The position numbers and the translations under genes were made by a program. From a virus: a stretch of DNA of 42,906 bases. The notes beneath the pieces are model-generated. The model was not told where the DNA came from. It did not search any database and was given only the letters and a program-made list of their open reading frames with translations. Positions 1 through 42,906 of the stretch are shown here, in pieces. The stretch's first letter is position 1, and each line of letters begins with the position of its first letter. The stretch covers positions 1 through 42,906 of IMG/VR virus record IMGVR_UViG_3300027710_000002; one strand, given 5' to 3'.

Positions 1-127
1 TCGACCACACCTCCTTCAAACATTGCTTTAAGAATATTGTTCGAGCCTCTTGGAAGATTTAGTTTATAGACTGAAGCTTCAAGTTTTTTAGGGTCAACTG
101 TAGCTTCCTTGTGATCGAAATCAAACA
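1..127. repeat. Terminal overlap identical to 42780..42906 (circular closure of the contig)
   Basis: Direct comparison of the two window ends gives 127/127 identical bases. A minus-strand ORF reads in frame across the join. Confidence 0.95.
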
Positions 128-503
128 GTGCTGTGTAGGAATCCAATGCTTTACGTGCGGATTCTTCGTTTCCTTTTTTCAAGGCCATTTGGTAGAGATT
201 CCAATAATTCTCTACTAATACCATTCTTTCTGCAGCTAAATTTATTTTGTCGATAGAGCCAAATAGCTCCATTGATAATGAATAGTCGCGATAAGCAGTC
301 GCTTGAGAGACGCTGTGGTCTCTCATAATTATTTTTATAGATTGTGCCGGTGAATATTTATTGTTGAGTCTTAGACTCCAAATGTGAACGAGTCTGTCTT
401 TTCGCAGAATTTCTTCAGGTGTTAGCTTCACCGAATCTTCATCGATGTACCAGGCTTTAATTCTTTGAAATGTGTTGTCTTTGGTAAATTTTACAATATC
501 CAT
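1..503 (-). CDS. terS: Terminase small subunit candidate, N-terminal part. The ORF wraps the circular junction and ends at TAA 42701..42703 (193 aa in total).
   Basis: ATG at 501-503 (rc) and open to the window edge. It continues in frame in the right-end copy. It has an HTH-like segment HSVSQATAYRDY. Its stop overlaps the terL ATG and it sits directly upstream of terL. Confidence 0.55.
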   Translation of the reverse strand, partial: MDIVKFTKDNTFQRIKAWYIDEDSVKLTPEEILRKDRLVHIWSLRLNNKYSPAQSIKIIMRDHSVSQATAYRDYSLSMELFGSIDKINLAAERMVLVENYWNLYQMALKKGNEESARKALDSYTALFDFDHKEATVDPKKLEASVYKLNLPRGSNNILKAMFEGGVV

Positions 504-546: not shown

Positions 547-572
547 AAAAAGCCTGACATTAGTCAGGCTTT
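547..572 (-). terminator. Intrinsic terminator after the 641..964 ORF
   Basis: 10-bp stem AAAGCCTGAC/GTCAGGCTTT with a 4-nt loop, followed by a U-run on the minus strand. Near-identical to the hairpin at 1922..1948. Confidence 0.7.
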
Positions 573-640: not shown

Positions 641-964
641 CTAGTTAAGACCAGCCGTTTCTGTGATTTTTATGTGATTTTCTTTTATCAAATCCTCTAC
701 AAATTCTGTTACTGAATTTGCTCTGATATTTTCATCATTTGTCAAAACTGCTCGACGGGAATAGTTTATCATAAATTCTTCAATCGTTTTTTCTTTTTGA
801 AATGAATTCTGCCAAAGAAAAAGCACGATATCATAATTTGATATTGCTGTAAATTCTTTGTTGTCGTTGATAATCTTTACCCTCATAATATGAGGGTAAA
901 GGTAGTCATTTTTCCTATGCAAGCGAAAGCTCTCTGTCTTCAAAAAATTCCTGTAAATTTTCAT
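641..964 (-). CDS. Hypothetical protein, downstream partner of the amidoligase (alternative ATG at 886 gives 82 aa)
   Basis: The ATG at 964 overlaps the amidoligase 3' end by 50 nt. The second in-frame ATG at 884-886 lies in the hairpin at 875..901. No recognisable motif. Confidence 0.45.
   Translation of the reverse strand: MKIYRNFLKTESFRLHRKNDYLYPHIMRVKIINDNKEFTAISNYDIVLFLWQNSFQKEKTIEEFMINYSRRAVLTNDENIRANSVTEFVEDLIKENHIKITETAGLN
875..901 (-). promoter_or_regulatory. Perfect 11-bp-stem hairpin (CTTTACCCTCA-TAATA-TGAGGGTAAAG) just after the amidoligase stop, containing an ATG
   Basis: Inverted repeat read directly from the sequence. There is no U-tract, so it is not a classical terminator. 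Confidence 0.5.
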
Positions 965-1838
965 CTAGTATTTGGTTTAAGTCGGTTATTAAAATATTTT
1001 GCTTAGAAAATTCTACAAGCCTAGCGCAAATCAAAATCCAATTTTTTATTTTTAAAAAATTAGTGCTTGCACCGTGTTGTCTAAATTCTACCGTTCCGTG
1101 TCTCTGAAAGCTTTGTAAATTTAATTTATAATATCTGCTTCCGAAATACTGAGCCATTTGGTTTACCGTTTGGCAGTTGTCTATTTTTGAAAAAAGCGTT
1201 GTTCTTCCAAGGCTTTTAAATCCTTTGCAGTATCTGTTGGCGTTCGCTCTTCTGCTTGATGGCATTATTTTGTCGATTTGCTCCTCAATAAAAAATTGAT
1301 TCTTAACCAGTGTTCTAAAATTTTCTATCGAATAATCATTTGCGTCTAGGTGAACGTGAACTCCGCAAGTTGTATTTACTTGTGCGTTGCTTAGTCTTAA
1401 AGCTTTGCAGGCTTTTCTGAAATCCGTTAAACCTTCTTTTCCCTGTAAAATTGGGCTTACCATTTCTTGAGCGCTGATTCCTCTTATTGAAGCGTCCGAT
1501 ACAAATTTCCAGTGTGGTCTGCTTGAGTGGTTGTAGCTTTCGGTTCTTGCTTCAAGGCCTGAGTTTCTAAAGTTTTGCGTTAGGCTTGGATTTGCTCCGA
1601 AAAATTCAATTTCTACTCCAAATTTTCTTGTAAATTCAAATTCAAAATTTATCGGAGCAGTCGGTTGTGGGTTGGTAGTTCTTGCTTCATTCCATTTTTT
1701 CCAAATGTTGTAAGAAAAGCCTCGGTTTCCGTTACAAATTAAATCAGCAACCTGAAGTCTGGTGAAACCTAAGTCGAATAATGCTTCTCCTTTTTTCGTT
1801 TTTGTCCAGTTGCTGTTTAAAATTTCTTCGCGTGTCAT
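915..1838 (-). CDS. Glutamine-synthetase-fold amidoligase (Pfam Amidoligase_2-like) with a roughly 55-aa N-terminal extension
   Basis: Motifs FGVEIEF, WKFVSDASI..EMVSPIL, CGVHVHLD, RYCKGF and YYKLNL..HGTVEFRQHGAST match the family signature as I recall it. Confidence 0.8.
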   Translation of the reverse strand: MTREEILNSNWTKTKKGEALFDLGFTRLQVADLICNGNRGFSYNIWKKWNEARTTNPQPTAPINFEFEFTRKFGVEIEFFGANPSLTQNFRNSGLEARTESYNHSSRPHWKFVSDASIRGISAQEMVSPILQGKEGLTDFRKACKALRLSNAQVNTTCGVHVHLDANDYSIENFRTLVKNQFFIEEQIDKIMPSSRRANANRYCKGFKSLGRTTLFSKIDNCQTVNQMAQYFGSRYYKLNLQSFQRHGTVEFRQHGASTNFLKIKNWILICARLVEFSKQNILITDLNQILDENLQEFFEDRELSLA

Positions 1839-1921
1839 ATCGTATTGTTTTCTAATTATTTACAAGTCTAAGTACGCTCTAAACCGTCAAACACGCAAGT
1901 CATAAGTGCTTTATTTTCAAT

Positions 1922-1948
1922 AAAAAAGCCTGACTAATGTCAGACTTT
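1922..1948 (-). terminator. Intrinsic terminator overlapping the C5-MTase stop codon
   Basis: Stem AAAGTCTGAC/GTCAGGCTTT on the minus strand (one G-U pair), followed by UUUUUU. Same stem sequence as 547..572. Confidence 0.7.
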
Positions 1949-2983
1949 AAACCATTGCTCTCTCATTTTCATTGCTATATTTGCCGTCATGAGCGGAGGC
2001 ACACTCATGCCACAAACATACCTGGCATCAAAACCACAAAAATTGAAATCTAAAGGAAATGTTTGCATACGTCTGTACTCAGTTTCATTTGGGCTCCTCT
2101 GCTCAGTATAATACACTGATGCTCCAGAACTGACTAATGTTCCCGGAACTTCATTATCGTAATAAATTAAAGTAGAAAAAAAAGCATTAAACGTTTTGAT
2201 TCCACGATATTTAGCATCCGCAAATTTTAAATTTTGATCTCCAAATTCAACGAATGGAAGTCTTATTTTTATTGATGGCCACAGTTCTTTTGCTTTACCC
2301 GTTTTACAATCTTTATCTACAATTTCTCCAAATGTGATTGGCTTATTAAAAAATTCCAATTTCAAAGCAGGAAAATTTAAATCTTTACGTCTTGCAATAA
2401 AAAATATTCTTTCTCTAGCTTGTGGAACTCCCATTGTTGCAGAATTTAAACTAAAAATTTGCACATTATAGCCATAATCATTCAACAATTGATAAATCTT
2501 GATTGAATATTCTTTTGCTTTACCGGCAATTATTCCCGGTACATTTTCAAGGATAGCTGTTTTGGGTTTGAGTTTATTAATTGTCTCACAAAAAACAAAA
2601 ACCAAATCATCTAAGGTTTGAATTTTTTGACCTTCATTATATCTGCGAACCTTACCCCAATCAGATTCTCTATTTCCACACATTGAAAATGTTGTACATG
2701 GAGGTGAGCCGTCAAGAATATCTAAATCATAAAGTTCTTCAGGTAAATCATCTCTTTTGTTAAAATCTCTAATATCCTCTGTATAAAGGTATTCTGGGCT
2801 GTGATTTACAGTGTAGATTTTACTCATTTTCGGATCAATTTCTACACCGCCTAGATGTTGATATCCTGCAAGTTTATAGCCCATTGTAGAGCCACCACCA
2901 CAAACAAATGTTCCAAAAACTTTTAGGTTTGTTGGTTTAGGATAATCCTCTTGTTTTTGCCAGTCTAAGCTTATATTTCTCAT
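1940..2983 (-). CDS. DNA (cytosine-5)-methyltransferase
   Basis: Motif I FVCGGGSTMGY, motif IV GSPPCTTFS, motif VI ENVPG, motif VIII QARERIFFIA, motif X GMSVPP. Confidence 0.9.
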   Translation of the reverse strand: MRNISLDWQKQEDYPKPTNLKVFGTFVCGGGSTMGYKLAGYQHLGGVEIDPKMSKIYTVNHSPEYLYTEDIRDFNKRDDLPEELYDLDILDGSPPCTTFSMCGNRESDWGKVRRYNEGQKIQTLDDLVFVFCETINKLKPKTAILENVPGIIAGKAKEYSIKIYQLLNDYGYNVQIFSLNSATMGVPQARERIFFIARRKDLNFPALKLEFFNKPITFGEIVDKDCKTGKAKELWPSIKIRLPFVEFGDQNLKFADAKYRGIKTFNAFFSTLIYYDNEVPGTLVSSGASVYYTEQRSPNETEYRRMQTFPLDFNFCGFDARYVCGMSVPPLMTANIAMKMREQWFKV

Positions 2984-3055: not shown

Positions 3056-4399
3056 TCATATTTTTTCAATCCATTTTGTACATTCTTCTTTTGATAACTT
3101 TTGACCATTCTTTACTACATTAAATTCTAGATTGTTATCACACATATATTTTATCCATCTTTTTGCAATAACATCAGCAAATCTGGGATCTAGTTCAATT
3201 CCTCGGCATTCTCTCCAGGTTATTTCGCAGGCAATCAAAGTCGATCCGGATCCAAGGAAAGAATCTCCGACGATATCCTTTTGTTTTGATGAATTTTTAA
3301 TGAGATAGCTTACTATATCCAAAGGCTTCATTGTCGGATGATCAGCATTGCGCAGTGGCTTATTAAATTCCAAGATTGTAGATTGTTTTCGGTCCGAAAA
3401 CCATGGATGCGAGGCACCTTCTTTCCAACCGTAAAGAATTGGCTCATGCTTCCAATGATAATCCTGACGACCCATCACGATTGAATTTTTAGCCCAAATC
3501 AAACATTGAGATAATTTGTACCCAGATTGCTTCAGGGCGTTTCGGAAATTTGCTCCTTCAGAATCTGCGTGAAATACATAAATAGGCGCTCCGAGCTCAG
3601 CGTTAATAAAACATTCTTGGTAGAAAAGATATAAGAAACTGAAGAACTCATCATTCGACATATTATCATTTTTAATTTTCAGCTTATCCTTTGTACCACC
3701 TTCGTAATTTACGTTGTACGGTGGATCAGTAACAATAAGGTTGAATTTTTGATCTCCTAAAATTTTCTTGTAATTTTCTGAAAGTGTAGAGTCTCCGCAT
3801 GTGAAAACGTGCTTAATTCCTTTTTGAATTGATATCAGTTCATAGACATCACCTTCCACGGTTTTCGGAACTGCAGGTGGTTCCGGATCAAAGTCTTGTT
3901 CCTCTTCATCCGGAACAAATGCATTGTCTTTTAAAAATTCTTCAAAAGCTCCTAAATCCATACCTATATCTTCCAGATCAATTTCCTGAAAAAACTCTTC
4001 AATCTTACTCCAGTCAAATTCACCATTATGAATATTTGATCTAAGCATGTATTCTTTGAATTCCTCTTCAGATAATTTTCGGTTGGGAACTCTCACATCG
4101 ATCAATTCTTCGCCTCTTTCCAGGATAAATAAAGCTGCTACTCGCTGATGTCCGGCGAGCAAAATATTATCGAAATCAATAACCGGTATTTCAACTAGGT
4201 TAAATTTCTCCAGGCTTTTTTTAAGCCGTAATAACTCCTCTTCAGATATTTGCCTTGGATTAAAATCACAAGGGATTAATTCGGACACCTTTCTTTGCAC
4301 GGTGTACCATTCTAACGGGGATGAAATAATATTTTCATCACTTAATTTGTCAGTTCTCATTTTATAACTAAATTTGCTTATCTCACTTTTCAAATACAC
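3056..4399 (-). CDS. ParB-like nuclease domain fused to a beta-class N6-adenine/N4-cytosine DNA methyltransferase
   Basis: The N-terminus has ParB/Srx-like ...NPRQ...LLAGHQRVAAL. The MTase has motif IV IVTDPPYNV before motif I VGDSFLGSGST. The codon at 4399 is GTG and the first ATG is at 4360. Confidence 0.85.
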   Translation of the reverse strand: MYLKSEISKFSYKMRTDKLSDENIISSPLEWYTVQRKVSELIPCDFNPRQISEEELLRLKKSLEKFNLVEIPVIDFDNILLAGHQRVAALFILERGEELIDVRVPNRKLSEEEFKEYMLRSNIHNGEFDWSKIEEFFQEIDLEDIGMDLGAFEEFLKDNAFVPDEEEQDFDPEPPAVPKTVEGDVYELISIQKGIKHVFTCGDSTLSENYKKILGDQKFNLIVTDPPYNVNYEGGTKDKLKIKNDNMSNDEFFSFLYLFYQECFINAELGAPIYVFHADSEGANFRNALKQSGYKLSQCLIWAKNSIVMGRQDYHWKHEPILYGWKEGASHPWFSDRKQSTILEFNKPLRNADHPTMKPLDIVSYLIKNSSKQKDIVGDSFLGSGSTLIACEITWRECRGIELDPRFADVIAKRWIKYMCDNNLEFNVVKNGQKLSKEECTKWIEKI

Positions 4400-5669: not shown

Positions 5670-6248
5670 TTAAGGTGTTACTGGAGTTGGAGCTGTATCT
5701 GGAGCTACAACAATTTCTCCGTCGAAAGCATAAAGACCGCTACGAGCTGTAACATTGAAAGCAGTACCTGCGTTTTCCTCATACTTCTTTGCCGTAGTAG
5801 CATCTGCTTTTGTCATATAAGCATCTAGAACGACCCATTTTTGACCTGTACTGTCAACGACAACGTAACACATTGGTGTATTTTTATGCCTCTTAATGAA
5901 CCCAACATTCTTTTTAATGAAGTTTGGAAGCATTCCGTCGAATTGTGCCTGATCTTTCATGTTCCCTACGGGTCCGACAAGATTATTCTTTAATTCATTT
6001 TCATCAATCATACACGTAGTTTTTTTAAAACCTTTACCAACAACAGGAACTAATGCCACAAGCGTAATTCCATCTGCGTATGATGTATTTTCATTTACAA
6101 CAGGCTTCGTGACTGTCTGTAGCTGATCCATAGGAGTGTAGTAAATGTCGGCTTTTACACCGCCAACAATCTCTTGGTTTGGGCAATATCCCATATTTTC
6201 AGTTCTTACTGTTTTGAAAGAACATCCTTCGTCGATTTCGTCTGCCAT
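5670..6248 (-). CDS. Virion structural protein candidate, paralogue of 37587..38171
   Basis: Shares the blocks IDENELK, GF(I/L)xRxKNxP, D(S/T)(T/S)GQxW and KKY with the 194-aa ORF. Located in the head module. Confidence 0.55.
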   Translation of the reverse strand: MADEIDEGCSFKTVRTENMGYCPNQEIVGGVKADIYYTPMDQLQTVTKPVVNENTSYADGITLVALVPVVGKGFKKTTCMIDENELKNNLVGPVGNMKDQAQFDGMLPNFIKKNVGFIKRHKNTPMCYVVVDSTGQKWVVLDAYMTKADATTAKKYEENAGTAFNVTARSGLYAFDGEIVVAPDTAPTPVTP

Positions 6249-6252
6249 TACT

Positions 6253-6576
6253 TTATTTTTTTAAGATTAAACCACTGTTACCTCCAATAAGAGCAAGAGC
6301 GAGATTTTCATCTGCAGCAATCTCCTTTTGGGTGTAACCTTTACCGTCTATTAAGATTTTTTTTGGAGCTTCATCTGTAAATTGATAATTTTCACCATCA
6401 AACTTAAAAGATAAACCTGGCTCAGGTTTTGAACTTTTCGGAGAAATCTCTTTTTGAGAAATAGCAGCTTCTCTTTCTTGAAGATTTTCCTCTCTTTCTT
6501 GCAGTTCAACTGCCTTTTTTTGAAGTTCCTCCGCTGATAAATCAGAGAAGGAAACTTTTATGTCTTTTTTTTCCAT
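6253..6576 (-). CDS. Hypothetical head-module protein (107 aa)
   Basis: Follows the capsid gene. The N-terminal half is acidic and coiled-coil-like. Confidence 0.5.
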   Translation of the reverse strand: MEKKDIKVSFSDLSAEELQKKAVELQEREENLQEREAAISQKEISPKSSKPEPGLSFKFDGENYQFTDEAPKKILIDGKGYTQKEIAADENLALALIGGNSGLILKK

Positions 6577-6599
6577 GTAATTTTATTGAAAAATTGTTT

Positions 6600-7616
6600 T
6601 TAAGCGACCAAACCCTTCTCTGATGCGTAATACAACTGATTCAATTCAGCGTTATTAAGACCTCTATTTTTAGTTGCATCCGGCGTATGTACAAAAGTTA
6701 ATTCGTTAATTGCAAATTCATAACCCAAAGTAAATTCACCTAAAATATCCAGTTCTCTTCCAACTTCCTGAACTTGAGTAATAGTAGCAGGATTGTCGAT
6801 AGCATCAACCATTTTTACAAAACCATTGTCAACTGTTGAAATTATAGTTCCTTTGGTTAATCCGTCAAGACCAATAATCTCTCTCTTTCCAAGTCTAGTA
6901 ACTAGTTTGTCCCCATCTTTGTAGATCGTATTCTTACCAAATTGATCTTCATAAGCAATTGCATAATCTTCAGCATCTGTAACAGAAGTGAAAATTTTCT
7001 TTACTTTTGATTTCATCAATTCAGGGAGCTGTCTTTCGTATTTTGTGAAAACATCAACAATATTTGATTGCGTAATTGCATCTCCTGGCATAAGGAATGC
7101 CGGGTTTTCTTCATTTAGCAAAAGCTTTCTGATAATCTCATTAAGACCATCCATAGAAAAGCCAAATTCAGGACTATTTAGACCTACTTTTGCAGCATTA
7201 TAAACGCCTTGAATTGAAAGAATATTTACGTCATCGATGATCTTGCTTAATAACAGATCAATTGAAAGCTTTGAGATTGACTTATCCTTAAGTCCTTTAC
7301 CTTCGTCGTACATTTCCTGAAGAACGGTACCTATAATCTCAGCAGGATTTAATCTGAAGTCGAACTTTTGATGATAGTTCTTCATTGTTTTTTTTCTAAA
7401 CTGTACTTCTCCGAAAGGAGTAACTTTTTTAGAATCAAAGCCTTGAACTACGTGACCGATTAATGAGTGTAGAGATGGATATTCCCCTCTAACTTTTGTA
7501 ATTGTAGTGGCATGAGCATTAAGAGCGATGGAAGAAGACAAGACAGCAGCTTGTAAAACTTTTGGATTCTTCTGTAAATATCTCCAAACCTCGATTTTGA
7601 TTTCGTCAATTTTCAT
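6600..7616 (-). CDS. Major capsid protein candidate
   Basis: 338 aa, directly after the protease and scaffold genes. Assigned on position and size only. Confidence 0.6.
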   Translation of the reverse strand: MKIDEIKIEVWRYLQKNPKVLQAAVLSSSIALNAHATTITKVRGEYPSLHSLIGHVVQGFDSKKVTPFGEVQFRKKTMKNYHQKFDFRLNPAEIIGTVLQEMYDEGKGLKDKSISKLSIDLLLSKIIDDVNILSIQGVYNAAKVGLNSPEFGFSMDGLNEIIRKLLLNEENPAFLMPGDAITQSNIVDVFTKYERQLPELMKSKVKKIFTSVTDAEDYAIAYEDQFGKNTIYKDGDKLVTRLGKREIIGLDGLTKGTIISTVDNGFVKMVDAIDNPATITQVQEVGRELDILGEFTLGYEFAINELTFVHTPDATKNRGLNNAELNQLYYASEKGLVA

Positions 7617-8067: not shown

Positions 8068-8877
8068 TTAAAATTTTAATAAGGCTTGTTCCAGAGTCAT
8101 TATTTCGTCCACCAAGCCAATTTTTAGGGCTTCTGTAGCGTTGTATGTCTTTCCTTTGAATACATGACCGTCATCCGAGAGTTTGTCGCCATAATTGGCT
8201 TTGATGGTCGATATAAATTCGTCTGTAATTATTTTAAGGCGCTCTTTGTAAGGCGCTTCGTTACCGCTGATCAATTCTTTGATGTCGGCATTTTTTTCTG
8301 TGGATTGTGGAGCATAGATTTCATAAATCTTTGCACCCCATTTTTCGAACATTGCTGAAAAGTCCTGAAATGATAAGTAAGTTCCAATAGAACCAATATG
8401 ACTTGCAAACGGACTGGCAATTTTCATGTTACATGCTGAAGCGATCCATTCAGCAGCTGAACATTGCATTTCTGATGTAAATGCAATTGTAGGTTTCTTC
8501 ATATTTTTGATGAAGTCTGCAAACTCAGCAGTTCCGGACACTTGACCGCCTCCGGAGTCGATATTAAATAGAACTCCGGAGATGTTTGGATTAGCATCAA
8601 TATTTCTGAGAATATTTTGCATGTCCAAGGTTCCGAGAGTATTGTATGTTGAATACTTTACAATCGGACCGATAATATTAAAAACAACTGGATATTTGCT
8701 CGCACCATTAGAATTGGCGCTCATCTGAAGATCAAGGGACTTAATAAATTTTTCCTGCACTTTTTCTGCAGAAACAAGAGTATTGGTTTTGAAGCCGATA
8801 ATCATTTCAGTTAAAAATGACATTAGATAATTTTTATCTATTGCCAGAGGAGTATTAAAAAAATTAAGTCCGTTCAT
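8068..8877 (-). CDS. Head maturation protease, S49 (SppA/ClpP-like) family
   Basis: Motif NIDSGGGQVSG and overall S49-like layout, upstream of the scaffold and capsid genes. Confidence 0.75.
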   Translation of the reverse strand: MNGLNFFNTPLAIDKNYLMSFLTEMIIGFKTNTLVSAEKVQEKFIKSLDLQMSANSNGASKYPVVFNIIGPIVKYSTYNTLGTLDMQNILRNIDANPNISGVLFNIDSGGGQVSGTAEFADFIKNMKKPTIAFTSEMQCSAAEWIASACNMKIASPFASHIGSIGTYLSFQDFSAMFEKWGAKIYEIYAPQSTEKNADIKELISGNEAPYKERLKIITDEFISTIKANYGDKLSDDGHVFKGKTYNATEALKIGLVDEIMTLEQALLKF

Positions 8878-16953: not shown

Positions 16954-17385
16954 ATGCAGAGAAAAGCGACTGATAATCAAAACGATAAAACACAAATTTT
17001 AGACGGAATTATTAAGAAAGTGGAAGAATTTCACCTGACTCCTTATGAAATTTCTAAAAATACGGGGCTTTCCGATACTGGAGTTCGGAAATTATTAGGA
17101 GGAAAAACTAAAAATCCTAGCATTGATACTCTGAATAGAATTTCAAAATATCTAGATTCTATAGAAAACAGTCCAGAAAAATGCAACGAAAAAACAATCG
17201 ATTTAGAACTGATCAACAATAAATTAGATTTTGTTATAGAAAAATTGGAAAAGATGGAGATTAGAATGGGAAGTAATGAATTGTTGCAAGAAATAATGTT
17301 TGAGCTACAAAAAAATTCTTCCAGTCCGGAAGAATTAAAAAAAATAGAGAAAGATATTTTAAAAAAGCAACAAGCTAGTTCATAG
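16954..17385 (+). CDS. CI-like (XRE-family HTH) repressor
   Basis: HTH LTPYEISKNTGLSDTGVRKLLGG. Plus-strand gene divergent from the early operon. Confidence 0.7.
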   Translation: MQRKATDNQNDKTQILDGIIKKVEEFHLTPYEISKNTGLSDTGVRKLLGGKTKNPSIDTLNRISKYLDSIENSPEKCNEKTIDLELINNKLDFVIEKLEKMEIRMGSNELLQEIMFELQKNSSSPEELKKIEKDILKKQQASS

Positions 17386-18618: not shown

Positions 18619-18691
<73 letters not shown>

Positions 18692-18729
18692 CTAGGAAAA
18701 ATGTCTTCGGTAGACATCCAAAAATACAC

Positions 18730-18802
<73 letters not shown>

Positions 18803-18889
18803 CTTTTTTTTTAAGAGAATAAATACATTTACGCTATTAAGATTTGCTTCAAAACAATTTTGATTAGAAATGTGTCTATTCTTTTTTTT

Positions 18890-18927
18890 TGTCACGAATC
18901 TCGTCACGTTAAAAAAAAAGTCGTGAC
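18890..18927. repeat. GTCACG repeats right of the tRNA array, candidate integrase arm-type sites
   Basis: TGTCACG at 18890-18896, CGTCACG at 18902-18908, inverted CGTGAC at 18922-18927. Confidence 0.4.
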
Positions 18928-19015
18928 GGCCGGTTATAAATTTCTAATTATGATCGGACAAAATCAATTATTACCATTTATTAAGAGCAAAGATGTTAAC
19001 AACATATTTGCACCT

Positions 19016-20125
19016 ATGGATTATACATTTTATTTAAAAAATGAACCTGATAAGCGAGGGAGAAAACCTGTTTATATTAACATTAATGTAGGAGGTAGAA
19101 GAAAGAGAATTCCTGCAGCAGTAAAAATTGAGGAGAAATATTGGGATTCAAAAAACATGAGAATTCTTGATACTCCAGAAAGCCGGGATCAACATCTGTT
19201 ATTAAAGCAGATTGATGCAAAGATCACTTCAATTAGAATGAAGCATCGCCTTTCTGAAGTTCCATTGACTTTACAGTCTTTTCTTGATCAACTAAAAACA
19301 GCTCCGTCGACCGTTGATTTCGGACAATTTTATAAAAGTATCAGGGACATTCAACCAATGAAACCCAATACATTAGCAAAACATGATTCCGTTTTTGAAA
19401 AATTAAAAGATTTTAGATCGCTCGTAGCGTTTCAAGATATAAATTATAAGTTTATTGATGAATTCAGATCGCATTTAAAGACAAAATTTAAAAATGCTCA
19501 GTCTACAATAAATTCAAACATTGCTGTTTTAAAAAAGTATCTTTCACTTGCTGAGAAGTACGGAATAAAGCTGGGATTTGATTTGGATGATATTCAGGTT
19601 GGCGATACAGGTGGAAGAATAATCTGGCTTGATGAAAAGGAAATTAGTAAATTACATGAATATTATTTTTCGAGTTTCATTCCAGATAATTATAAACTTT
19701 CCCTTGGATATTTTTTAATTGCATGTTACACCGGATTAAGAATATCAGATGTAAAAGCAAGAAAGAGAGAAGAGATGCTAGAGGAGTTTCTCCGAGTGGT
19801 TTCATTTAAAGGAGGTAAAGATTTAACGCTTTACCTTATTCCAAAAGTTCATGATATCATAAATTCGAATCCGGATCTTTTCATCACGCTATGGACAGAG
19901 GTAACAATGAATAAGCATTTAAAGAAGATATCCAATACTTGTGGAATAAGGAAACGTCTTTATTTTCATGTTGGCAGGCATTCTTTCGCGACAAATTATC
20001 TAATTAAAGGTGGACAAATAGAGAACCTGCAGACAATTTTAGGTCACACCAAAATTATGACAACTATGAAATATGTACATGTTGCAAAAGATACTGCAGC
20101 ACGAAGTATGATGTTAATGCAATGA
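19016..20125 (+). CDS. int: Tyrosine recombinase / phage integrase
   Basis: Catalytic motifs GLRISDV, HVGRHSFAT and LGHTKIMTTMKYVH. The start was chosen at MDYTFYLK. The track ORF begins at 18860 but would cover the repeat region. Confidence 0.85.
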   Translation: MDYTFYLKNEPDKRGRKPVYININVGGRRKRIPAAVKIEEKYWDSKNMRILDTPESRDQHLLLKQIDAKITSIRMKHRLSEVPLTLQSFLDQLKTAPSTVDFGQFYKSIRDIQPMKPNTLAKHDSVFEKLKDFRSLVAFQDINYKFIDEFRSHLKTKFKNAQSTINSNIAVLKKYLSLAEKYGIKLGFDLDDIQVGDTGGRIIWLDEKEISKLHEYYFSSFIPDNYKLSLGYFLIACYTGLRISDVKARKREEMLEEFLRVVSFKGGKDLTLYLIPKVHDIINSNPDLFITLWTEVTMNKHLKKISNTCGIRKRLYFHVGRHSFATNYLIKGGQIENLQTILGHTKIMTTMKYVHVAKDTAARSMMLMQ

Positions 20126-24015: not shown

Positions 24016-24389
24016 AAGTATGGGATTTTGTTTTTGTATAATTTTTTAGTTTTGTCGGTATTCCTTTCCATATAGTTCCAAATTTCAATAGCAAAATTTT
24101 GGAGGTAAATAATAAGTCTCTCGGGTCGTTCCTCTATGGTTTTAGCCATCGGTAATAAAATATCCTTATTTCTGATGAGTTTTTGAAAACCAAGCATTGA
24201 GATTATAAAATCTATATCTTTAATTTTGTATTCCTCAGTAAGATCACCATTAAGTATTTTTGAAACTGATCCTACCAGATAGAGATTTTCGCCAGTGATT
24301 TCTTTGACATTTTCAACCAGGATATCACAATACTCGTTTAATACCGGCACTTCAAAAATCTCGAGTTTTTTAAAGTTATTTTCGTGCAT
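23991..24389 (-). CDS. Minimal nucleotidyltransferase-fold protein (132 aa)
   Basis: The hGS-x16-DxD pattern LVGSVS...IKDIDFI plus a later acidic strand AIEIW. Overlaps both neighbours (14 and 25 nt). Confidence 0.5.
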   Translation of the reverse strand: MHENNFKKLEIFEVPVLNEYCDILVENVKEITGENLYLVGSVSKILNGDLTEEYKIKDIDFIISMLGFQKLIRNKDILLPMAKTIEERPERLIIYLQNFAIEIWNYMERNTDKTKKLYKNKIPYLCQSEPKL

Positions 24390-27300
24390 TTCTACTTTCT
24401 ATTTGATCGCTTTTTTTAACAGCAGTTTTTATTAATTTTCCATTCTTTTCATTAGCGATCATGTAGGCGATAATTCCTTCATCATCTAATTTTTTAAGCA
24501 AAACCAAAAGTTCCTGAAGCACATTATTGTTTTGCATCATGTATTCTGAGTTTTGAGTATTAGGAGTGATGGAAACTGTATCAGTTGTTGTATTTTTTAC
24601 AAGTCCACCTTCAGCATAACCTTTATTATTACCTTGTCTGACGCTTTCCAAATAGTCAATTACTTTAGCATGTCGAGGATGTTCTACCATCCATTGTGGA
24701 GCAACCCATTCCTTAGCATGAACTACACCTGCAGGAACAGCTCCGGTTTCATCTGGAGAACCGAAGCCGGTTCCAGTGTGGCCACCTTTAAAAAAGCTCG
24801 GCTTATCAGGAAGAGGAGTACTCATTACTGTTCCTAACTGGATTGCTCCTAAAGTCCCGATTACAACAGCAGCTATTGTTCCTCCAATCGGACCAAGTTG
24901 ACTGTAAGCTTGCATAATTGCCAATGATGTACTTGCTACAATTTCAGCAACTTTGAGAGCTCTCTCAACTTTTGCTTGTTTGTATGATATTTCAGCTTTT
25001 TTATTCGCGGTTTCCGCCTCAATTAATTGAACTTTTTTATTATATTCAGTCTGACTAATAATACCTTCATTTAATTGTCTTAGAAGCTCTTTTTTCTTGT
25101 TTGAATTATCCTTCTCAAATTTTGACATTTCACGATTAGCAAGATTCTGCTGCAGTTGGGAAAAACTTTGAAAAGCGCTTGATAGAGCCTGTACAACCAT
25201 TTTTACAGCCTCAATTTTTCCTTTTGTTGTATCAAGATTTTTCCAAGCGGTTTCCCAATCTTTGGCAGAAAATCCTAGAATATCTACTTTTTCTTTTTCG
25301 GAATTATTCTCTTCAGTAACCTTCTTTTTATCAGCTTCATCGCCGCCCTTCATTGCCGATTTAACTGCAGTGATTCTGATATTTAATTCATCAAGATCTT
25401 TCTTTAGTTTTGCAGTAGCTTCTGAAGATAGTGAGGGATCATTAATAAGCTGATTTAGAAGTTTTTTTTGCTCATCCAGCATTTTCATCTGGGAATCTAA
25501 GTAAGCTCGGTCAGCATTTTCTCTAAGAGCCTTTTTAGCATCTTCTAACGTTGTTATGCTCTTTAATTCAAGTTCTGTAAGCTTAAGATAATGCATCTGA
25601 GATAACGCCTCTTTCGCCTGATCCATTGAAGAAATATTATTGATCATTTCTTCAGATGAATTCCTTTCAAGATCTATCTTTGACTGTAATTTTTCTACCT
25701 TTTTTTCAAAGCTTAAAGTCTCCCATTTTTCTTCTATGCGAAGCAGATTAAAGCCATGAGTTTGCCATATTTGATCTTCTATTTCCGCATTAATATTTAT
25801 TAGATTCTGCCTTTTTTTGTTGGTAGTATTTAATTCAGATATAGCGCTATCAAATATTTTTGTAGCTTCTGGTGATTTTGTTTCTTTTTTATCTCGCTGA
25901 AGCTTTTTGATTTCATCTTCAGATTTTTGAATTTGATTTTTGATTTCAGTGTTTTGTTGAGAAATTTCAGACTTTCTGTTTTCGTAATCTTGAAGTTCTA
26001 AATTCCACTCTTTCTCTTTACTTTCCTGAAGTATTTTGAATTCTTCGTCTTTTTTAGTTTTTTCGAGCTCTAAAAATTTTTTATCTGCTTCAGCTTTTGC
26101 TTCAAGCGATTTATTGTAAGCTTCACGAGCTTTTTCTAAATCATCATCTTTTTTCTTCTCAAGATTTTTATCTTTTTTCGCTTCAGGAACAACAATATTT
26201 TGAGGTACAATATTTCCAGTCGGAGTTTCAGCCGTTGATAATTTTACAATCTCATCACTTAGTTCCTTAGCATCATCGTTAAGACTTTGGATTGCCTCCA
26301 TTCTTTTTTCATAGACATATCCAAAACTTTCCATCATGCTTTTTGCATATTCATCACCACCTTTTCTACGCCATATTTCGAATTGCTTTCTCTGACTTTT
26401 ATCGAGTTTTTTTATTTCCGAAGGTGTTAAAAATGACATATTTCGATCAACCCAATTACCATTTGTTTTAACAAAATCTTTTATAGGAGTATCTTCTGTA
26501 TCAATAATTTTTTCTTGTATTTCATCAAGTTTTTTATTTAAAACCTTAATTCTCGAATTTCTAATTAATGCATCCGTATATGCTTTTATCGCGTTGGTAG
26601 CTTCTTGTGTTTTGATATTTTCAAGCGTCAAATTGCCTAAATATTCAGGAGAAAGGGCATTTAATTTTTTGATTGCGTTCGCTTTTACTTCCTTAGAATA
26701 ATTATCATTTCTAGCTATCTCAACTAAATTATTTAGTTCGTTTTTTTGAGAAATGATGCCTTTTTCAGATTCTTTGTTGATATCATTCAGCATTTTTTGT
26801 TTATCAGCTGCTTTATCAACCTCTTTTGAGAACATCGCGATGGCTACGACTGCTGCAGTAATAACCGCGACAAAAAGACCAATAAGATTAGATTTTGTTG
26901 CTATATTAAAAGCTCTCATAGCAATTGTAGCTCTAACAGTATTTCCCGTTACCAGAGCCTGAGCTGCAGCATATAAAAGTGATGCTGCTCTAGCTGTTGT
27001 GTCCCAAAATACTTTTGCTTTCTGAACTAAATTGTATATTAAAGTCTCACGAGTTACATTTTTAGTCGTCAAAACTAAAATTAAGAGAGCTGCGTTATAG
27101 CCAATTACAGCAGAAATAGCAACAATAAAAAGTTTGTAAAGAACTGATAATCGCTCTTTAAATATAATAATACCATCACCGGACTCGTCGGTCACACCAG
27201 TTAGCCAACCTACAGCTTGGATGAGACTTTCAAACTTATTGATTACGTTTGTTGAAGTGAACATATCACCGAACGCATTCTTGATTTTTTCAAGAATTGC

Positions 27301-28539
27301 CGGTGCATTATTATTTTTTTTATTGAATTCATCAGTTAAAGAGGTCATTTTATTCATCTCATCTCCGGCGGTCTCCATCGATTTTCTAAAGTCGTCAGTT
27401 CTATTAGCGGCAGCACCTATCACTTTTTGAACTTCCAATGAATTCAATTTTAAACTTTCGAAGATTTTAGAAGTCTCAGTTCCGGATACGCCTTTCATTC
27501 CGGCTGCAAATCGCAAGAAAAATTCTTCAGGTTTAGTGTTTAATAGTTTCGTAGCTTCAGAAACTGACATTTGCATTGAAATTGCAAAACCTTCAATATT
27601 TCCTCCAGCTGTAGTCAAAAAATTAGATACACCTGAAGAAGCGATTTGAGCATCAATACCTGATTCTTCGAAAGCAGCACCTAAACCTAAAACTTTATCA
27701 ATTGCAGGTCGTAGTGCTTCCGGTAAATTTCCTAATCTTAGTGTGAAATTTGCGATGTTTCCTTCGCTAGCGGTTCCCTGAGCAGCCAAAGTATTAAGAG
27801 CAGAACCAACCTTATTAATTGCGTCTGCGTACGTTAATTCCTTTGTTCCGTTGAATAGCCCCTTAATTTTACCAAGCTGATCGACTACACCCTCAAGACC
27901 ACCGTCGAAACTATCTCCTAAAGCGACATAAGCTTTGTCGACTTCCTGGACAAAATCTTTCATTTCCTCCAGAGGAACTCCCAAACGACCTCCAACTTCA
28001 GCAATTTTTAAACGCTCAAGCTTCGTTGTTCTGGTGTCCATCTCGTCAAATTGATTCCAAAGATTTTTTACCTGATCTGTAGACATCCCAGTAGTTTTTT
28101 CTACATCGGTCATTGCATCAGCTATTTTCAGAAGTTGATCTACAGTTTCTTTACCTTTTGAAATCATATTTTCAAAAAACATTGAAGCAGTATTCGCACT
28201 GAATACCTCTCTGAAGGTTTCACCAAAACTTAATAACCCATTACGAAATAAACCTAAAAAACCTCTTGATCTGTTAAGAGCGCCATCAAGATTATTGATT
28301 TCATTTCTTACTTCTGCAAAACGAGCTCTAGCTCTACTTAGTTGTTCTGCAGTCGCGTTAAATTCTCTAGTACCAACTGGAAGACGGCGAAGATCACGCT
28401 CTAAACTTCGAGTGATTCGCTGAACATTCTGAAATGTATTTTGAACTTGATTTCCGTTGATATATAGAACTCCGGTTGTGGAGATTGTGTTTCCTGCCAT
28501 CTTGCTGTAAGAATTTGATGCAAGATGTAACTGGAGCAT
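24376..28539 (-). CDS. Tail tape measure protein
   Basis: 1387 aa with long coiled-coil Lys/Glu-rich segments and hydrophobic helices in the middle and near the C-terminus. Confidence 0.85.
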   Translation of the reverse strand: MLQLHLASNSYSKMAGNTISTTGVLYINGNQVQNTFQNVQRITRSLERDLRRLPVGTREFNATAEQLSRARARFAEVRNEINNLDGALNRSRGFLGLFRNGLLSFGETFREVFSANTASMFFENMISKGKETVDQLLKIADAMTDVEKTTGMSTDQVKNLWNQFDEMDTRTTKLERLKIAEVGGRLGVPLEEMKDFVQEVDKAYVALGDSFDGGLEGVVDQLGKIKGLFNGTKELTYADAINKVGSALNTLAAQGTASEGNIANFTLRLGNLPEALRPAIDKVLGLGAAFEESGIDAQIASSGVSNFLTTAGGNIEGFAISMQMSVSEATKLLNTKPEEFFLRFAAGMKGVSGTETSKIFESLKLNSLEVQKVIGAAANRTDDFRKSMETAGDEMNKMTSLTDEFNKKNNNAPAILEKIKNAFGDMFTSTNVINKFESLIQAVGWLTGVTDESGDGIIIFKERLSVLYKLFIVAISAVIGYNAALLILVLTTKNVTRETLIYNLVQKAKVFWDTTARAASLLYAAAQALVTGNTVRATIAMRAFNIATKSNLIGLFVAVITAAVVAIAMFSKEVDKAADKQKMLNDINKESEKGIISQKNELNNLVEIARNDNYSKEVKANAIKKLNALSPEYLGNLTLENIKTQEATNAIKAYTDALIRNSRIKVLNKKLDEIQEKIIDTEDTPIKDFVKTNGNWVDRNMSFLTPSEIKKLDKSQRKQFEIWRRKGGDEYAKSMMESFGYVYEKRMEAIQSLNDDAKELSDEIVKLSTAETPTGNIVPQNIVVPEAKKDKNLEKKKDDDLEKAREAYNKSLEAKAEADKKFLELEKTKKDEEFKILQESKEKEWNLELQDYENRKSEISQQNTEIKNQIQKSEDEIKKLQRDKKETKSPEATKIFDSAISELNTTNKKRQNLININAEIEDQIWQTHGFNLLRIEEKWETLSFEKKVEKLQSKIDLERNSSEEMINNISSMDQAKEALSQMHYLKLTELELKSITTLEDAKKALRENADRAYLDSQMKMLDEQKKLLNQLINDPSLSSEATAKLKKDLDELNIRITAVKSAMKGGDEADKKKVTEENNSEKEKVDILGFSAKDWETAWKNLDTTKGKIEAVKMVVQALSSAFQSFSQLQQNLANREMSKFEKDNSNKKKELLRQLNEGIISQTEYNKKVQLIEAETANKKAEISYKQAKVERALKVAEIVASTSLAIMQAYSQLGPIGGTIAAVVIGTLGAIQLGTVMSTPLPDKPSFFKGGHTGTGFGSPDETGAVPAGVVHAKEWVAPQWMVEHPRHAKVIDYLESVRQGNNKGYAEGGLVKNTTTDTVSITPNTQNSEYMMQNNNVLQELLVLLKKLDDEGIIAYMIANEKNGKLIKTAVKKSDQIESRNARK

Positions 28540-32984: not shown

Positions 32985-33548
32985 TTAAAATAAATCATCA
33001 TACTTTTTCAGAATTTTGGCGAGACCCTTTCCAATAATTTCTTTTTTATTTACAATATTTTCAACAGCTCCAGTTCCTGTGATGAAATCAACTTCAACCA
33101 AAACCGAAATTCCAGATCCAAGATTTAGAATTCCAATTCGGGAATGCTGAGAGTTATTTTCTGGCTTTACTCCACGATTTTTTATTCCTAAAGTTTGAGA
33201 TAAAAATTCATTAACCTCATTCGCCATTTTGTAAGAGCAAGAATTTTTGTCTGCAAAATCTTTTTTATTGACATAACATTCAACGCCACGCGTTGTATTA
33301 TTTACTGCAGCATTCAAATGAATATCAAAAATAACGGAGCCCGAAGCCGGTTTTATCCTAGTTTGATACTGTTTATTTGTTTCCCAGTCTTTATCTACAA
33401 TAATGTCTTTGTCCGCACTTTGATTAACGATAGAATCACGTATAATTCTAGTAATATCAGCTTCTTTGTAGCCATTAGATACAGCTCCCGGATCTTCATT
33501 ATTATGTCCTGCAGAAACGTACGTTCTTAACGGTGAAAATTGTATCAT
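32985..33548 (-). CDS. Endolysin, N-acetylmuramoyl-L-alanine amidase (Amidase_3 type)
   Basis: Motifs SAGHNNEDPGA, IFDIHLNA and VEVDFIT. Confidence 0.85.
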   Translation of the reverse strand: MIQFSPLRTYVSAGHNNEDPGAVSNGYKEADITRIIRDSIVNQSADKDIIVDKDWETNKQYQTRIKPASGSVIFDIHLNAAVNNTTRGVECYVNKKDFADKNSCSYKMANEVNEFLSQTLGIKNRGVKPENNSQHSRIGILNLGSGISVLVEVDFITGTGAVENIVNKKEIIGKGLAKILKKYDDLF

Positions 33549-39140: not shown

Positions 39141-40472
39141 TTAATTAACTACTTTTTCTTGTCCGTTTTTATTTTTATCCAATGTGGTGAGATTGATGTT
39201 AGGAAATTTTCCAAAAACAGTAGGATCCCATGAGTTCCAAAACTTAATGTTTTCAAAAATCTGAAGCGTTCTGATTTGTTTGATTGGAAGTTTTGCGCAA
39301 AGAATTGTCCAGGCTTCACGTTTATCGGATCCGGAACCGGATAATGTCTTTCCTCCGAATGCTCCACCCGTGATAAGACACGGATCAACACCCATTGCTG
39401 TTAGAAGTTCATAGTTCGCTGCCGAACTGTCAAGAAGAAAATCTCCATTACCCTGAGGCTGCTTAATCTCATCGATCTGAATACCTTTAATCTCTTTTCC
39501 GTTTTCATCCCGAAAGAATGGAGAAATGATTGATTTTCCACCGCCTTTAGAACCTTTCAATTCAGAATCAATTAAGTCAACAAGTTCTTGACGTTTTTTT
39601 TGTTTTTCATCGGCGGAAAAAGCGTCCCAGTCTTCCTGATAAATGTGTTTAAAGTAATCGTCTGCAACATGAATCAGATATTTTACACTGAGTTGCTGCT
39701 CAAACATTGCTTTTTTAAAGGCAGGAATCGCCAGAACTACATCAACCCATCCATTTTTAAATGAAGCGTGCCATCCAACAGACGGATATGATTTTTCAAT
39801 TAAAAGAGTGTCGATAACAGGAATTGTAAATCTGACAATTCCTGTTAGTTTACAAAAAGTTTTGATTTCATCGATTGGAATATTTGCTCCAAAGCATGGA
39901 ATTACTGCAGTATTTTCTGCCTTGTAATTTCCCCAGTCAGTATTAACACCGATATTATTCATTACCCCATTATTGTCAGGAACCTGAAAACGAACTTCAG
40001 CAGCTTTTAATCTTCGTACTGAAATAATCTTATCTCCGTTAGGCGATAACAAATACTCCGGAAAAGCTATTCTAAACGTTTCATAATCTGTGACAATTTC
40101 AGAGTTAAATATGTCAAATTTTGTACGGTAATAAAAAGCGGAAATCTCTGGAAAAGAGCTCACTAATCTTTCTTTAAAAATTATTGCCTCCTCTGTTTCC
40201 TGACCTTGATACAATCTAAAGCCAGTGCCAAAGTGAGCTGCTGTCAAAACTTCAAGACCACCTACTGCAACGCCGGTCATTTTTAATTTTGCAGCGAACT
40301 CTTGCGGATACAAATTATTATCACCCCAGGGCAACCATTGATTATCAATAAGGCTTTCCGTATTGGTGATTTTAAGATTTGAATGTTGCGGTTCGCCTTT
40401 TACTTTATTAAAAAATATTGCCGTCTGATTAGAGCGCCCTCCAACGGAATAAATTCCCTGAGAAATTTCCAT
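39141..40472 (-). CDS. Portal protein candidate
   Basis: 443 aa, second gene downstream of terL. Assigned on size and position only. Confidence 0.55.
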   Translation of the reverse strand: MEISQGIYSVGGRSNQTAIFFNKVKGEPQHSNLKITNTESLIDNQWLPWGDNNLYPQEFAAKLKMTGVAVGGLEVLTAAHFGTGFRLYQGQETEEAIIFKERLVSSFPEISAFYYRTKFDIFNSEIVTDYETFRIAFPEYLLSPNGDKIISVRRLKAAEVRFQVPDNNGVMNNIGVNTDWGNYKAENTAVIPCFGANIPIDEIKTFCKLTGIVRFTIPVIDTLLIEKSYPSVGWHASFKNGWVDVVLAIPAFKKAMFEQQLSVKYLIHVADDYFKHIYQEDWDAFSADEKQKKRQELVDLIDSELKGSKGGGKSIISPFFRDENGKEIKGIQIDEIKQPQGNGDFLLDSSAANYELLTAMGVDPCLITGGAFGGKTLSGSGSDKREAWTILCAKLPIKQIRTLQIFENIKFWNSWDPTVFGKFPNINLTTLDKNKNGQEKVVN

Positions 40473-42708: not shown

Positions 42709-42906
42709 CCTGTTCGGCTTCTTCTACATTTTCATTAACATCTTTCCAAGTCACATCTTCTGGTCCGATTTTATTAAAATCGACCACACCTCCTTCAAAC
42801 ATTGCTTTAAGAATATTGTTCGAGCCTCTTGGAAGATTTAGTTTATAGACTGAAGCTTCAAGTTTTTTAGGGTCAACTGTAGCTTCCTTGTGATCGAAAT
42901 CAAACA
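42701..42906 (-). CDS. terS: Terminase small subunit candidate, C-terminal part (42780..42906 duplicates 1..127)
   Basis: In-frame continuation of the ORF starting at 503. Acidic tail ...ENVEEAEQDE, then TAA at 42701-42703. Confidence 0.55.
   Translation of the reverse strand, partial: FDFDHKEATVDPKKLEASVYKLNLPRGSNNILKAMFEGGVVDFNKIGPEDVTWKDVNENVEEAEQDE

Follow-up and report, generated by a model that had tools for sequence, protein, structure and literature searches.

The DNA analyzed here, called the window throughout, is a viral sequence of 42,906 nucleotides taken at its full length (IMG/VR record IMGVR_UViG_3300027710_000002), and its source is a temperate siphovirus-like phage of the Chryseobacterium type. 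The minus strand of the window carries a two-gene cassette made up of an Amidoligase_2 gene (here, the ligase) and a gene for a small acidic protein directly downstream of it (here, the partner). The order on that strand is head genes, a ParB-N6/N4 DNA methylase, a C5 DNA methylase, the ligase, the small partner open reading frame (ORF), a gene in the position of the small terminase gene (terS), and the large terminase gene (TerL) (Table 1). An earlier note on this DNA, made from the letters without database searches, had described an amidoligase lying between head genes, DNA methylases, and terminase. These neighbors were recovered, with the two methylases next to the ligase and the head protease and probable capsid genes farther upstream.

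The ligase, its N-terminal domain, and its partner

Score, coverage, motifs, and fold all place the ligase in the Amidoligase_2 family. A profile search matched PF12224 at E = 1.9e-39 and 136.5 bits, with the gathering cut-off at 22, and the match covers ligase residues 70 to 275 and profile positions 2 to 245 of 245. The PHROG 2443 profile ("amidoligase enzyme") matched at E = 1.5e-41, and no other Pfam family was matched in the protein. The four motif blocks from which the assignment had originally been proposed are all in the translation (GVEIEF at residues 74 to 79, EMVSP at 125 to 129, CGVHVHLD at 158 to 165, and GTVEFRQHG at 248 to 256). Their signature residues (GxExE, ExVSP, CGxHxH, and EFRxH) are present in the window protein and invariant across 36 homologs with 40 to 86% identity, as are E76, E78, E125, H161, H163, E185, D189, R196, R235, K238, N240, E251, R253, and H255. 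None of the conserved Glu, His, and Arg residues is lost in this alignment, and the ligase therefore looks catalytically intact. The invariant pattern (E-x-E, E, H-x-H, R, and E-x-R) is one that we take to be consistent with a metal/ATP site of the glutamine synthetase (GS) type.

An AlphaFold2 model of the ligase built from the 36 homologs had a mean pLDDT of 90.6. Its neighbors in a Foldseek search of the PDB were solely GS, gamma-glutamyl-amine synthetases, and YbdK, a GCS2 enzyme (best E = 1.9e-4, probability ~1.0); matches at E ≤ 0.001 were to GS type III and YbdK alone, and the remainder of the list was entirely of the GS family. The GS fold named in the earlier note is borne out by this confident model and its uniform list of neighbors, although at low TM-scores. 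Sequence searches of the PDB with the ligase returned nothing significant. The model fits a stripped-down GS-like fold: the ligase core (~240 aa) is much smaller than these enzymes, lacks the N-terminal beta-grasp domain of GS, and shows 8 to 13% identity to them with TM-scores of 0.35 to 0.41. By analogy, the ligase would catalyze an ATP-dependent ligation of a carboxylate and an amine.

Ahead of the core lies an N-terminal extension, which had been put at roughly 55 residues and described as having an HTH-like feel. The extension is real, with the Pfam match beginning at residue 70 and residues 3 to 54 modeled as a separate four-helix domain (helices 3 to 8, 13 to 22, 27 to 34, and 39 to 54), here called the N-domain; pLDDT falls below 50 at residues 55 to 60. 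The N-domain is basic throughout (pI 8.9 to 10.1), and its conserved residues are K13, K16, L20, G24, T26, R27, V30, A31, G40, and N44. HTH_23 gave a subthreshold match in 4 of 24 N-domain members (best E = 0.003), and HTH_7, HTH_58, and HTH_Crp_2 each matched two to three members, again always below threshold. A profile search of the PDB with the N-domain found no significant match, the best being an mTERF repeat at E ~0.004. Searching databases with the N-domain only retrieved solely pieces of 45 to 98 aa from split or truncated ligases.

The partner is an acidic protein from an unannotated family. It had been listed as an 82/107-aa ORF and as the only cassette partner of the ligase; that role stands, while the length does not. 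The 107-aa call is an artifact of an in-frame upstream ATG at position 964, and the homologs align from an internal Met, which gives a protein of 81 aa. An AlphaFold2 model of the partner had a pLDDT of 91.4. No significant structural neighbor was found in the PDB (best E = 0.83), and the relatives found in the BFVD viral structure library, at TM-scores of 0.82 to 0.84, are all uncharacterized proteins. Sequence searches of the PDB gave nothing significant, and no family was matched in Pfam, NCBIfam, or PADLOC. A cdhB match in the PADLOC/NCBIfam scan was subthreshold and was rejected as spurious. No PADLOC model matched the ligase or the partner, a result that is neutral at best since that library covers defense systems rather than anti-defense systems.

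An exhaustive profile search placed the partner family in 1,287 representative clusters, nearly all of them stand-alone proteins of 70 to 110 aa, with a typical length of ~77 to 81 aa across the clade. The partner is acidic throughout (pI 4.5 to 5.6), compared with the basic N-domain. Its invariant residues are mainly those of the hydrophobic core, together with R45 and D65, which sit inside predicted helices, and there is no conserved Lys. The C-termini vary (LN, K, AD, Q, and AS), have low model confidence, and are predicted to be disordered; no conserved terminal Glu, Gln, or Gly was seen in the partner alignments. Apparent fusions of 134 to 170 aa, one of them with ACT-like Pfam domains, were set aside as read-through, frameshift, or chimeric artifacts with low-complexity tails. 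Only three fusions appear genuine (P0332, P0339, and P0350, the last consisting of tandem partner domains), and none offers a Pfam clue.

Linkage of the two genes was counted in the best 80 of at least 585 IMG/VR contigs and in 79 loci from species-representative genomes. The partner lies immediately 3' of the ligase in all 76 informative viral loci; the other four contigs end 0 to 181 nt past the ligase stop codon. In the species-representative loci it is present in 78 of 79 and directly downstream in 75, while in two loci a GGACT gene stands between the two (ligase-GGACT-partner), in another a divergent copy of the partner overlaps the ligase stop by 4 nt, and in the last the partner is apparently frameshifted. 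When the search was reversed and three abundant partner clusters were taken as the starting point, the ligase was found upstream every time. The N-domain is as constant, occurring in every one of the 79 genome loci of the clade, and all of the best 80 viral loci match the query ligase from residues 1 to 6. In seven non-Bacteroidota phage ligase loci (Bacillus, Arthrobacter, Dorea, and others) neither the partner (best E 0.86) nor the N-domain (best E 0.13) was detected.

A comparative analysis by Iyer et al. 2009 reportedly linked phage Amidoligase_2 genes to GATase-like and/or AIG2/GGCT partners. The statement of the earlier note that the family is usually paired in this way held in the six annotated non-Bacteroidota phage loci, which carry GGCT and/or GATase, and so did its statement that both are missing here: a Pfam scan at E ≤ 0.01 of 54 ORFs of the window (7 from the cassette region and 47 further ones) found neither GATase nor GGCT/AIG2. 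The clade is defined by two additions, the basic N-domain and the near-obligate acidic partner, and these usually stand where the classical partners occur elsewhere. The replacement is not complete, because five clade loci (L080, L150, L187, L168, and L185) keep a GGACT/AIG2-like cyclotransferase gene in the same operon. Through this in-operon GGACT the clade would be connected with the gamma-glutamyl-type chemistry that has been inferred for the family as a whole.

Degraded or split ligase genes occur beside an intact partner in L191 and L194, and L022 has no ligase; many ligase "fragments" are contig-end truncations. One contig (L061) carries two identical inverted copies of the cassette, at 1623-2805 (+) and 5888-7070 (-), which represent either an inverted duplication or an assembly artifact.

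Organization, distribution, and surroundings of the cassette

Several features of the noncoding DNA bear on how the cassette is expressed. Between the two genes is a 12-bp perfect hairpin (dG -17.7 kcal/mol, z = -4.7; none of 200 shuffles was equal) whose 3' arm contains the partner AUG (886-884), 28 nt past the ligase stop, and whose 5' arm is noncoding. It is kept in six members of the lineage, in which 3 of its 13 predicted pairs show compensatory double changes. In other lineages (Bacteroidales and Cytophagales) the ligase and the partner have a 4-nt stop/start overlap instead. These arrangements imply a putative translational coupling of the two genes.

Eight members of the lineage share a conserved gap of ~100 nt 5' of the ligase, even though their proteins are only ~50 to 58% identical. 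This gap holds promoter-like blocks that presumably match the Bacteroidota sigma-A consensus. The window version is TACTTAGA, and ~20 nt past the TTTGC block the sequence reads TATCTTTG in L007 and L009 and TACCTTTG in L010. The pattern TTTG-N-TAnnYTTG matches at 1863-1891; it is not enriched in the genome, with eight matches versus 5.5 expected, and a scan for sigma-70 promoters gives no information in Bacteroidota. The promoter call thus depends on conservation across lineages. No riboswitch or other RNA was found 5' of the cassette in six loci or in the window.

Intrinsic-terminator-like hairpins with T-runs lie on both sides, one ending the methylase operon just 5' of the cassette and one ending the cassette itself. 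The 26-nt pattern AAAGYCTGACNNNNGTCAGGCTTTTT matches at these two places only in the genome, with no match expected. Such near-identical flanking terminators could mark the cassette as a recombination-delimited insertion. Taken together, the conserved promoter-like blocks, the twin terminators, and the coupling features indicate a self-contained transcription unit that makes both proteins in a fixed ratio. Partly from observation and partly by inference, we regard the cassette as an autonomous unit of promoter, genes, and terminator that passes from one mobile element to another.

Table 1. Positions of the cassette features and of other identified genes in the window
Feature	Position	Strand	Basis
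Amidoligase_2 gene (ligase), 307 aa	915..1838	-	PF12224, PHROG 2443
Ligase catalytic core, residues 70-307	915-1631, including stop codon	-	
Basic four-helix N-terminal domain of the ligase, ~54 aa, residues 1-54	1677..1838	-	AlphaFold2
Disordered linker of the ligase, residues 55-69	1632-1676	-	AlphaFold2
Partner gene, 81-aa acidic beta-beta-alpha-alpha-alpha-beta protein, unannotated family	641..886	-	Alignments, AlphaFold2
RNA hairpin, putative translational-coupling element	873..903	-	RNA folding, conservation
Promoter-like element (TTG(C) at ~1898-1895, TAnnTTTG-like at ~1874-1863)	1863..1900	-	Cross-lineage conservation
Intrinsic-terminator-like hairpin and T-run ending the methylase operon	1923..1948	-	Pattern AAAGYCTGACNNNNGTCAGGCTTTTT
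Intrinsic-terminator-like hairpin and T-run ending the cassette	547..572	-	dG -17.4 kcal/mol, z = -4.8
C5 cytosine DNA methyltransferase	1940..2983	-	PF00145 (E = 8.8e-39), PHROG 116
ParB-N-domain and N6/N4 DNA methyltransferase	3056..4399	-	PF01555 (E = 4.9e-24), PHROG 498, ParB-like PHROGs
terS-position gene, abutting TerL	1..503, across the circular junction to ~42700	-	Position only
TerL	41146-42708		PHROG 2
Portal candidate	39141-40472		
Holin			
Endolysin	32985-33548		
Tape-measure protein	24376-28539		
Integrase	18860-20125	+	
CI-like HTH repressor	16954-17385		
S49 head protease	8068-8877		

Relatives of the ligase were found in at least 585 IMG/VR contigs and in 197 of 185,579 species-representative genomes. 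The carriers are mainly Bacteroidota (Flavobacteriales, Cytophagales, Chitinophagales, Bacteroidales, and Saprospiraceae), with outliers of the clade in Kapaibacteria/Ignavibacteria and gut Opitutales; a few oddly labeled metagenome bins among them are probably misbinned. By a limited marker set, 25 of the 79 genome loci are in phage contexts and 11 are in conjugative-element contexts.

The surroundings of the cassette were surveyed for two genes on each side in 32 dereplicated cassettes. This census counted N6/N4 DNA methylases (8), DUF5053 (5), C5 methylases (4), TerL (4), ParA-type proteins (3), and lysis enzymes (~5 family hits), with one each of a D12 methylase, a HicA toxin, and GGACT. 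DUF5053 is the second commonest neighbor family, found in 5 of the 32 loci with a best E of 6e-31. Ten of 35 clusters have ParB-methylase homologs close to the cassette, and three arrangements were seen: methylase-ligase-partner-terS-terL, methylase followed at a distance by TerL-ligase-partner, and ligase-partner-methylase. A single element combines D12 and C5 methylases, the cassette, and an integrase.

The idea that the adjacent methylases are functional partners of the ligase did not hold up. The methylase-flanked clusters (~10 of 35) belong mostly to one syntenic lineage, and no methylases were seen in the retrieved flanks of a Hymenobacter prophage, of Porphyromonas phage 018a, where the cassette adjoins HicAB, or of most conjugative-element loci. 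The association is real but partial and looks like coresidence in accessory islands, not enzymatic coupling; the functionally linked neighbor is the downstream partner ORF.

In Bacteroidales conjugative elements the cassette occupies the gap between the divergent mob operon (MobC_2, relaxase, and coupling protein) and the tra operon (ParA-like traA, DUF3408, and traE/F/G). It is transcribed away from mob and has ~0.6 to 1.3 kb of noncoding DNA 5' of it. In CTnDOT-type elements the mob/tra gap presumably contains oriT. The divergent mob/tra layout has been described for CTnDOT (PMC3809561). In one family of gut Bacteroidales conjugative elements (L018 to L021, ~6355-6872) the cassette is followed directly by genes for an HU-like protein (Bac_DNA_binding), an Hc1 histone-like protein, and 8xMP before traA is reached. 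In another locus (L093) an Rfam c4-2 RNA of the c4 small RNA clan (52 bits, with a gathering score of 41) lies at 8320-8396 (+), ~2 kb 3' of the cassette.

The two ends of the window share an exact 127-bp direct repeat (1-127 = 42780-42906), and the viral genome is therefore circularly closed or permuted, with 42,779 unique bases; the cassette is consequently followed directly by the terS-position gene and TerL. No family match for the terS-position gene was found in PHROG and Pfam scans, so the small-terminase label is purely positional; a homolog (L025:6279-6917) likewise sits directly before TerL. A distant ligase together with GGCT occupies the same slot in a Firmicutes phage, Dorea phage NatCom_31361 (L109, 3016-5325), directly 5' of the small terminase gene, which suggests that this slot is a general hotspot for accessory genes. 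The best protein match to the phage is a Chryseobacterium protein with 98% identity, in keeping with the Bacteroidota host proposed earlier, and a megablast search of the cassette region found no match among known deposited phages. Two tandem tRNA-Met (CAT) genes (18619-18692 and 18730-18803, +) lie directly 5' of the integrase and near the CI-like repressor, and a connection with the attachment site is possible. Between the portal/DUF6712 genes and the holin, a 928-aa ORF (34798-37584, -) contains a CotH kinase-like domain (PF08757, E = 2.7e-8, residues 665 to 860), which seems unusual in a phage structural region.

Proposed role and alternatives

We propose that the ligase and its partner act as a complex. 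ATP would activate a glutamate-type carboxylate as an acyl-phosphate, as in GS, YbdK/GCS2, and PafA, and the activated carboxylate would then be coupled to an amine on a protein of the host or the element or on a metabolite. This amide chemistry is suggested by analogy with every characterized GS-fold ligase and by the occasional GGACT in the operon. The opposite charges of the acidic partner and the basic N-domain are complementary and count in favor of a complex, in which the N-domain may dock the partner or a nucleic-acid-bound target. The partner would be a noncovalent specificity or regulatory subunit rather than a covalent tag, because it is folded, its C-terminus is unconserved, and it has no conserved Lys. 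The unit would serve the mobile element in conflict with its host, and we lean toward establishment or anti-defense because the cassette adjoins orphan methylases and terminase genes in phages and lies in the mob-tra gap in conjugative elements. The conflict role is plausible by association, and the chances of the joint reading, in which a ligase-partner complex forms amides in element-host conflict, seem to us evenly balanced.

A more specific version of this reading has the cassette as a new class of early-expressed anti-defense or establishment effector in Bacteroidota mobile elements, whose own promoter would fire after DNA entry. The ligase would place a gamma-glutamyl-type amide on a host immune protein or a nucleoid-associated protein, or would neutralize an immune metabolite, and the acidic partner or the basic N-domain would supply target recognition. 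We offer this version only tentatively and consider it rather unlikely.

Several observations weigh against the reading proposed here. The TM-scores of the ligase model to GS-family structures are low, and the few markers used leave 43 of the 79 genome contexts unclassified. An autonomous promoter-terminator unit in a temperate phage suits a lysogen-expressed, host-protective gene equally well. One Hymenobacter-like phage lineage (L022:6001-6621, L023, and L024) has the partner domain without a ligase, fused to a C-terminal extension of ~130 aa, and the partner domain must therefore have some function of its own. In L022 an unrelated 199-aa gene holds the slot that the ligase has in the syntenic Hymenobacter prophage L008; it was considered as a relative of the ligase and rejected (hhalign probability 0.6%). 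Lastly, no biochemical or genetic data for any PF12224 member were found in the literature searched, and we therefore infer the substrate, the product, and the direction of benefit alike.

The small-metabolite or cell-wall substrate raised in the earlier note is the alternative that survives best, although we think it unlikely to be the correct one. The ligase would amidate or extend a precursor in the cytoplasm, for example a peptidoglycan stem peptide or some other metabolite bearing a carboxylate, and the result would be lysogenic conversion, superinfection exclusion, or host reprogramming. Small molecules are the classical substrates of GS-fold enzymes, and GGACT enzymes act on free gamma-glutamyl amines. 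The autonomous promoter-terminator layout is typical of lysogen-expressed accessory genes, and lysis enzymes neighbor the cassette in several loci. The published prediction for phage pairs of Amidoligase_2 and GATase, as cited in PMC11318856 and PMC10580990, also points this way. However, the Pfam scan of the window found no amidotransferase to donate ammonia and no envelope-related partner, and a basic N-domain with a dedicated protein partner is unusual for a small-molecule enzyme. This explanation also leaves the mob-tra gap position and the association with methylases unaccounted for.

That a GS-fold ligase and an acidic protein of ~80 aa strictly co-occur and are translationally coupled would also be expected if the partner were itself the covalent substrate, whether as a Pup-like tag, a LysW-like carrier, or a RiPP-like scaffold, including the tagging of virion proteins that the earlier note had suggested. 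PafA/Pup is a precedent for a GS-fold protein ligase, and tandem partner domains do exist (P0350). The features of the partner make this improbable: it is confidently folded, unlike Pup, its variable and disordered C-terminus has no conserved terminal Glu, Gln, or Gly, it has no invariant Lys, and the model places D65 and R45 inside helices. In one lineage, moreover, the partner is retained although no ligase is present. The Pup-like form of the tag was rejected on the unconserved C-terminus and the folded domain, which also contradict a virion tag of that form.

We are equally doubtful of a toxin-antitoxin-like or abortive-infection module in which the acidic partner restrains a growth-arresting ligase. 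In its favor are the occurrence of an autonomous two-gene unit in accessory regions of prophages and conjugative elements, the HicAB genes next to the cassette in Porphyromonas phage 018a, and the loci with a degraded or absent ligase and an intact partner (L191, L194, and L022), versus one apparent reverse case (L180). Leading regions are, in addition, enriched for toxin-antitoxin genes (PMC11541004). However, many of the ligase fragments are truncations at contig ends, the active-site residues of the ligase are intact across a very wide diversity, and neither protein has a PADLOC match. The partner also has no recognizable DNA-binding antitoxin fold, and the GGACT in some operons hints at a pathway of metabolism or modification.

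The least likely of the options in the earlier note, and one that we consider very improbable, is DNA hypermodification, in which the ligase and the adjacent methylases would place an amide-linked adduct on a phage DNA base. In its favor, the genes most often found beside the cassette encode DNA methyltransferases, the N-domain has a basic charge and a weak HTH likeness, some conjugative elements have HU and Hc1 genes after the cassette, and viral metagenomes show amidoligase and amidotransferase genes associated with thymidine-hypermodification clusters (PMC8989533). Against it, a Pfam scan of the window at E ≤ 0.01 detected no enzyme that would furnish DNA with a carboxylate or an amine as a handle (no 5-hmdU kinase, aGPT-Pplase, dUMP hydroxymethylase, TET/JBP, or deazaguanine genes, the defining genes of the thymidine cluster being taken from PMC8989533), and neither 5-methylcytosine nor N6/N4-methyl bases provide one. 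Moreover, several phage and conjugative-element loci have the cassette with no methylase in view, and what universally accompanies the ligase is a small protein and not an enzyme acting on DNA.

Relation to known systems and significance

The closest known systems are the classical phage amidoligase cassettes, for example, those of Arthrobacter phages Kovu and Ottawa, Bacillus phages 055SW001 and vB_BceS-M2, and Dorea phage NatCom_31361. They share the family and its motifs with the window, at 27 to 37% identity to the core of the window ligase, and are likewise phage accessory genes that sometimes lie directly upstream of terS, as in the Dorea phage; the five clade loci with an in-operon GGACT are a further likeness. 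In contrast to them, the window has neither GATase nor GGCT, and its clade adds the N-domain and the ~77-aa partner and lives in conjugative elements as well. PafA/Pup resembles the window cassette in that a GS-fold ligase is genetically paired with a small acidic protein, but Pup is disordered and has a conserved C-terminal GGQ/E, whereas the window partner is folded with a variable C-terminus, and the window ligase matches Amidoligase_2 and no other Pfam family. A Klebsiella fimbrial "amidoligase" was set aside as an unrelated ATP-grasp protein.

The leading regions of conjugative plasmids are enriched for anti-defense genes, orphan methylases, toxin-antitoxin genes, and unknown families (Samuel et al. 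2024, PMC11541004). The window clade is similar to these regions, and to the orphan-methylase islands of phages, in that the cassette is colocated with orphan DNA methylases and, in conjugative elements, lies next to the relaxase operon, on its opposite side and transcribed away from it. It differs in that the main text on the leading-region islands mentions no ligase family and no Bacteroidota (PMC11541004).

Published statements on Amidoligase_2 trace to Iyer et al. 2009, as cited in PMC11318856 and PMC10580990. No description of the N-domain/partner variant, or of its occurrence in conjugative elements, was found in the literature, although Iyer et al. 2009 might mention either. The subfamily with the N-domain and the partner is a newly delineated variant of a known enzyme family, not something categorically new.

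Amidoligase_2 genes are common in phages, and their annotations repeat the 2009 prediction. The subfamily delineated here is large and coherent and has a specific composition of ligase, N-domain, and ~77-aa partner, and it is abundant in the conjugative elements of gut Bacteroidales and in Bacteroidota phages from oral, environmental, and clinical sources. That it keeps turning up beside orphan methylases, beside terminase genes, and in the mob-tra gap yields a concrete hypothesis of establishment or conflict for a simple two-protein system. If the conflict role is false, the cassette is an ordinary accessory gene pair; if it is true, covalent amide-bond modification would join the counter-defense chemistry of mobile elements.

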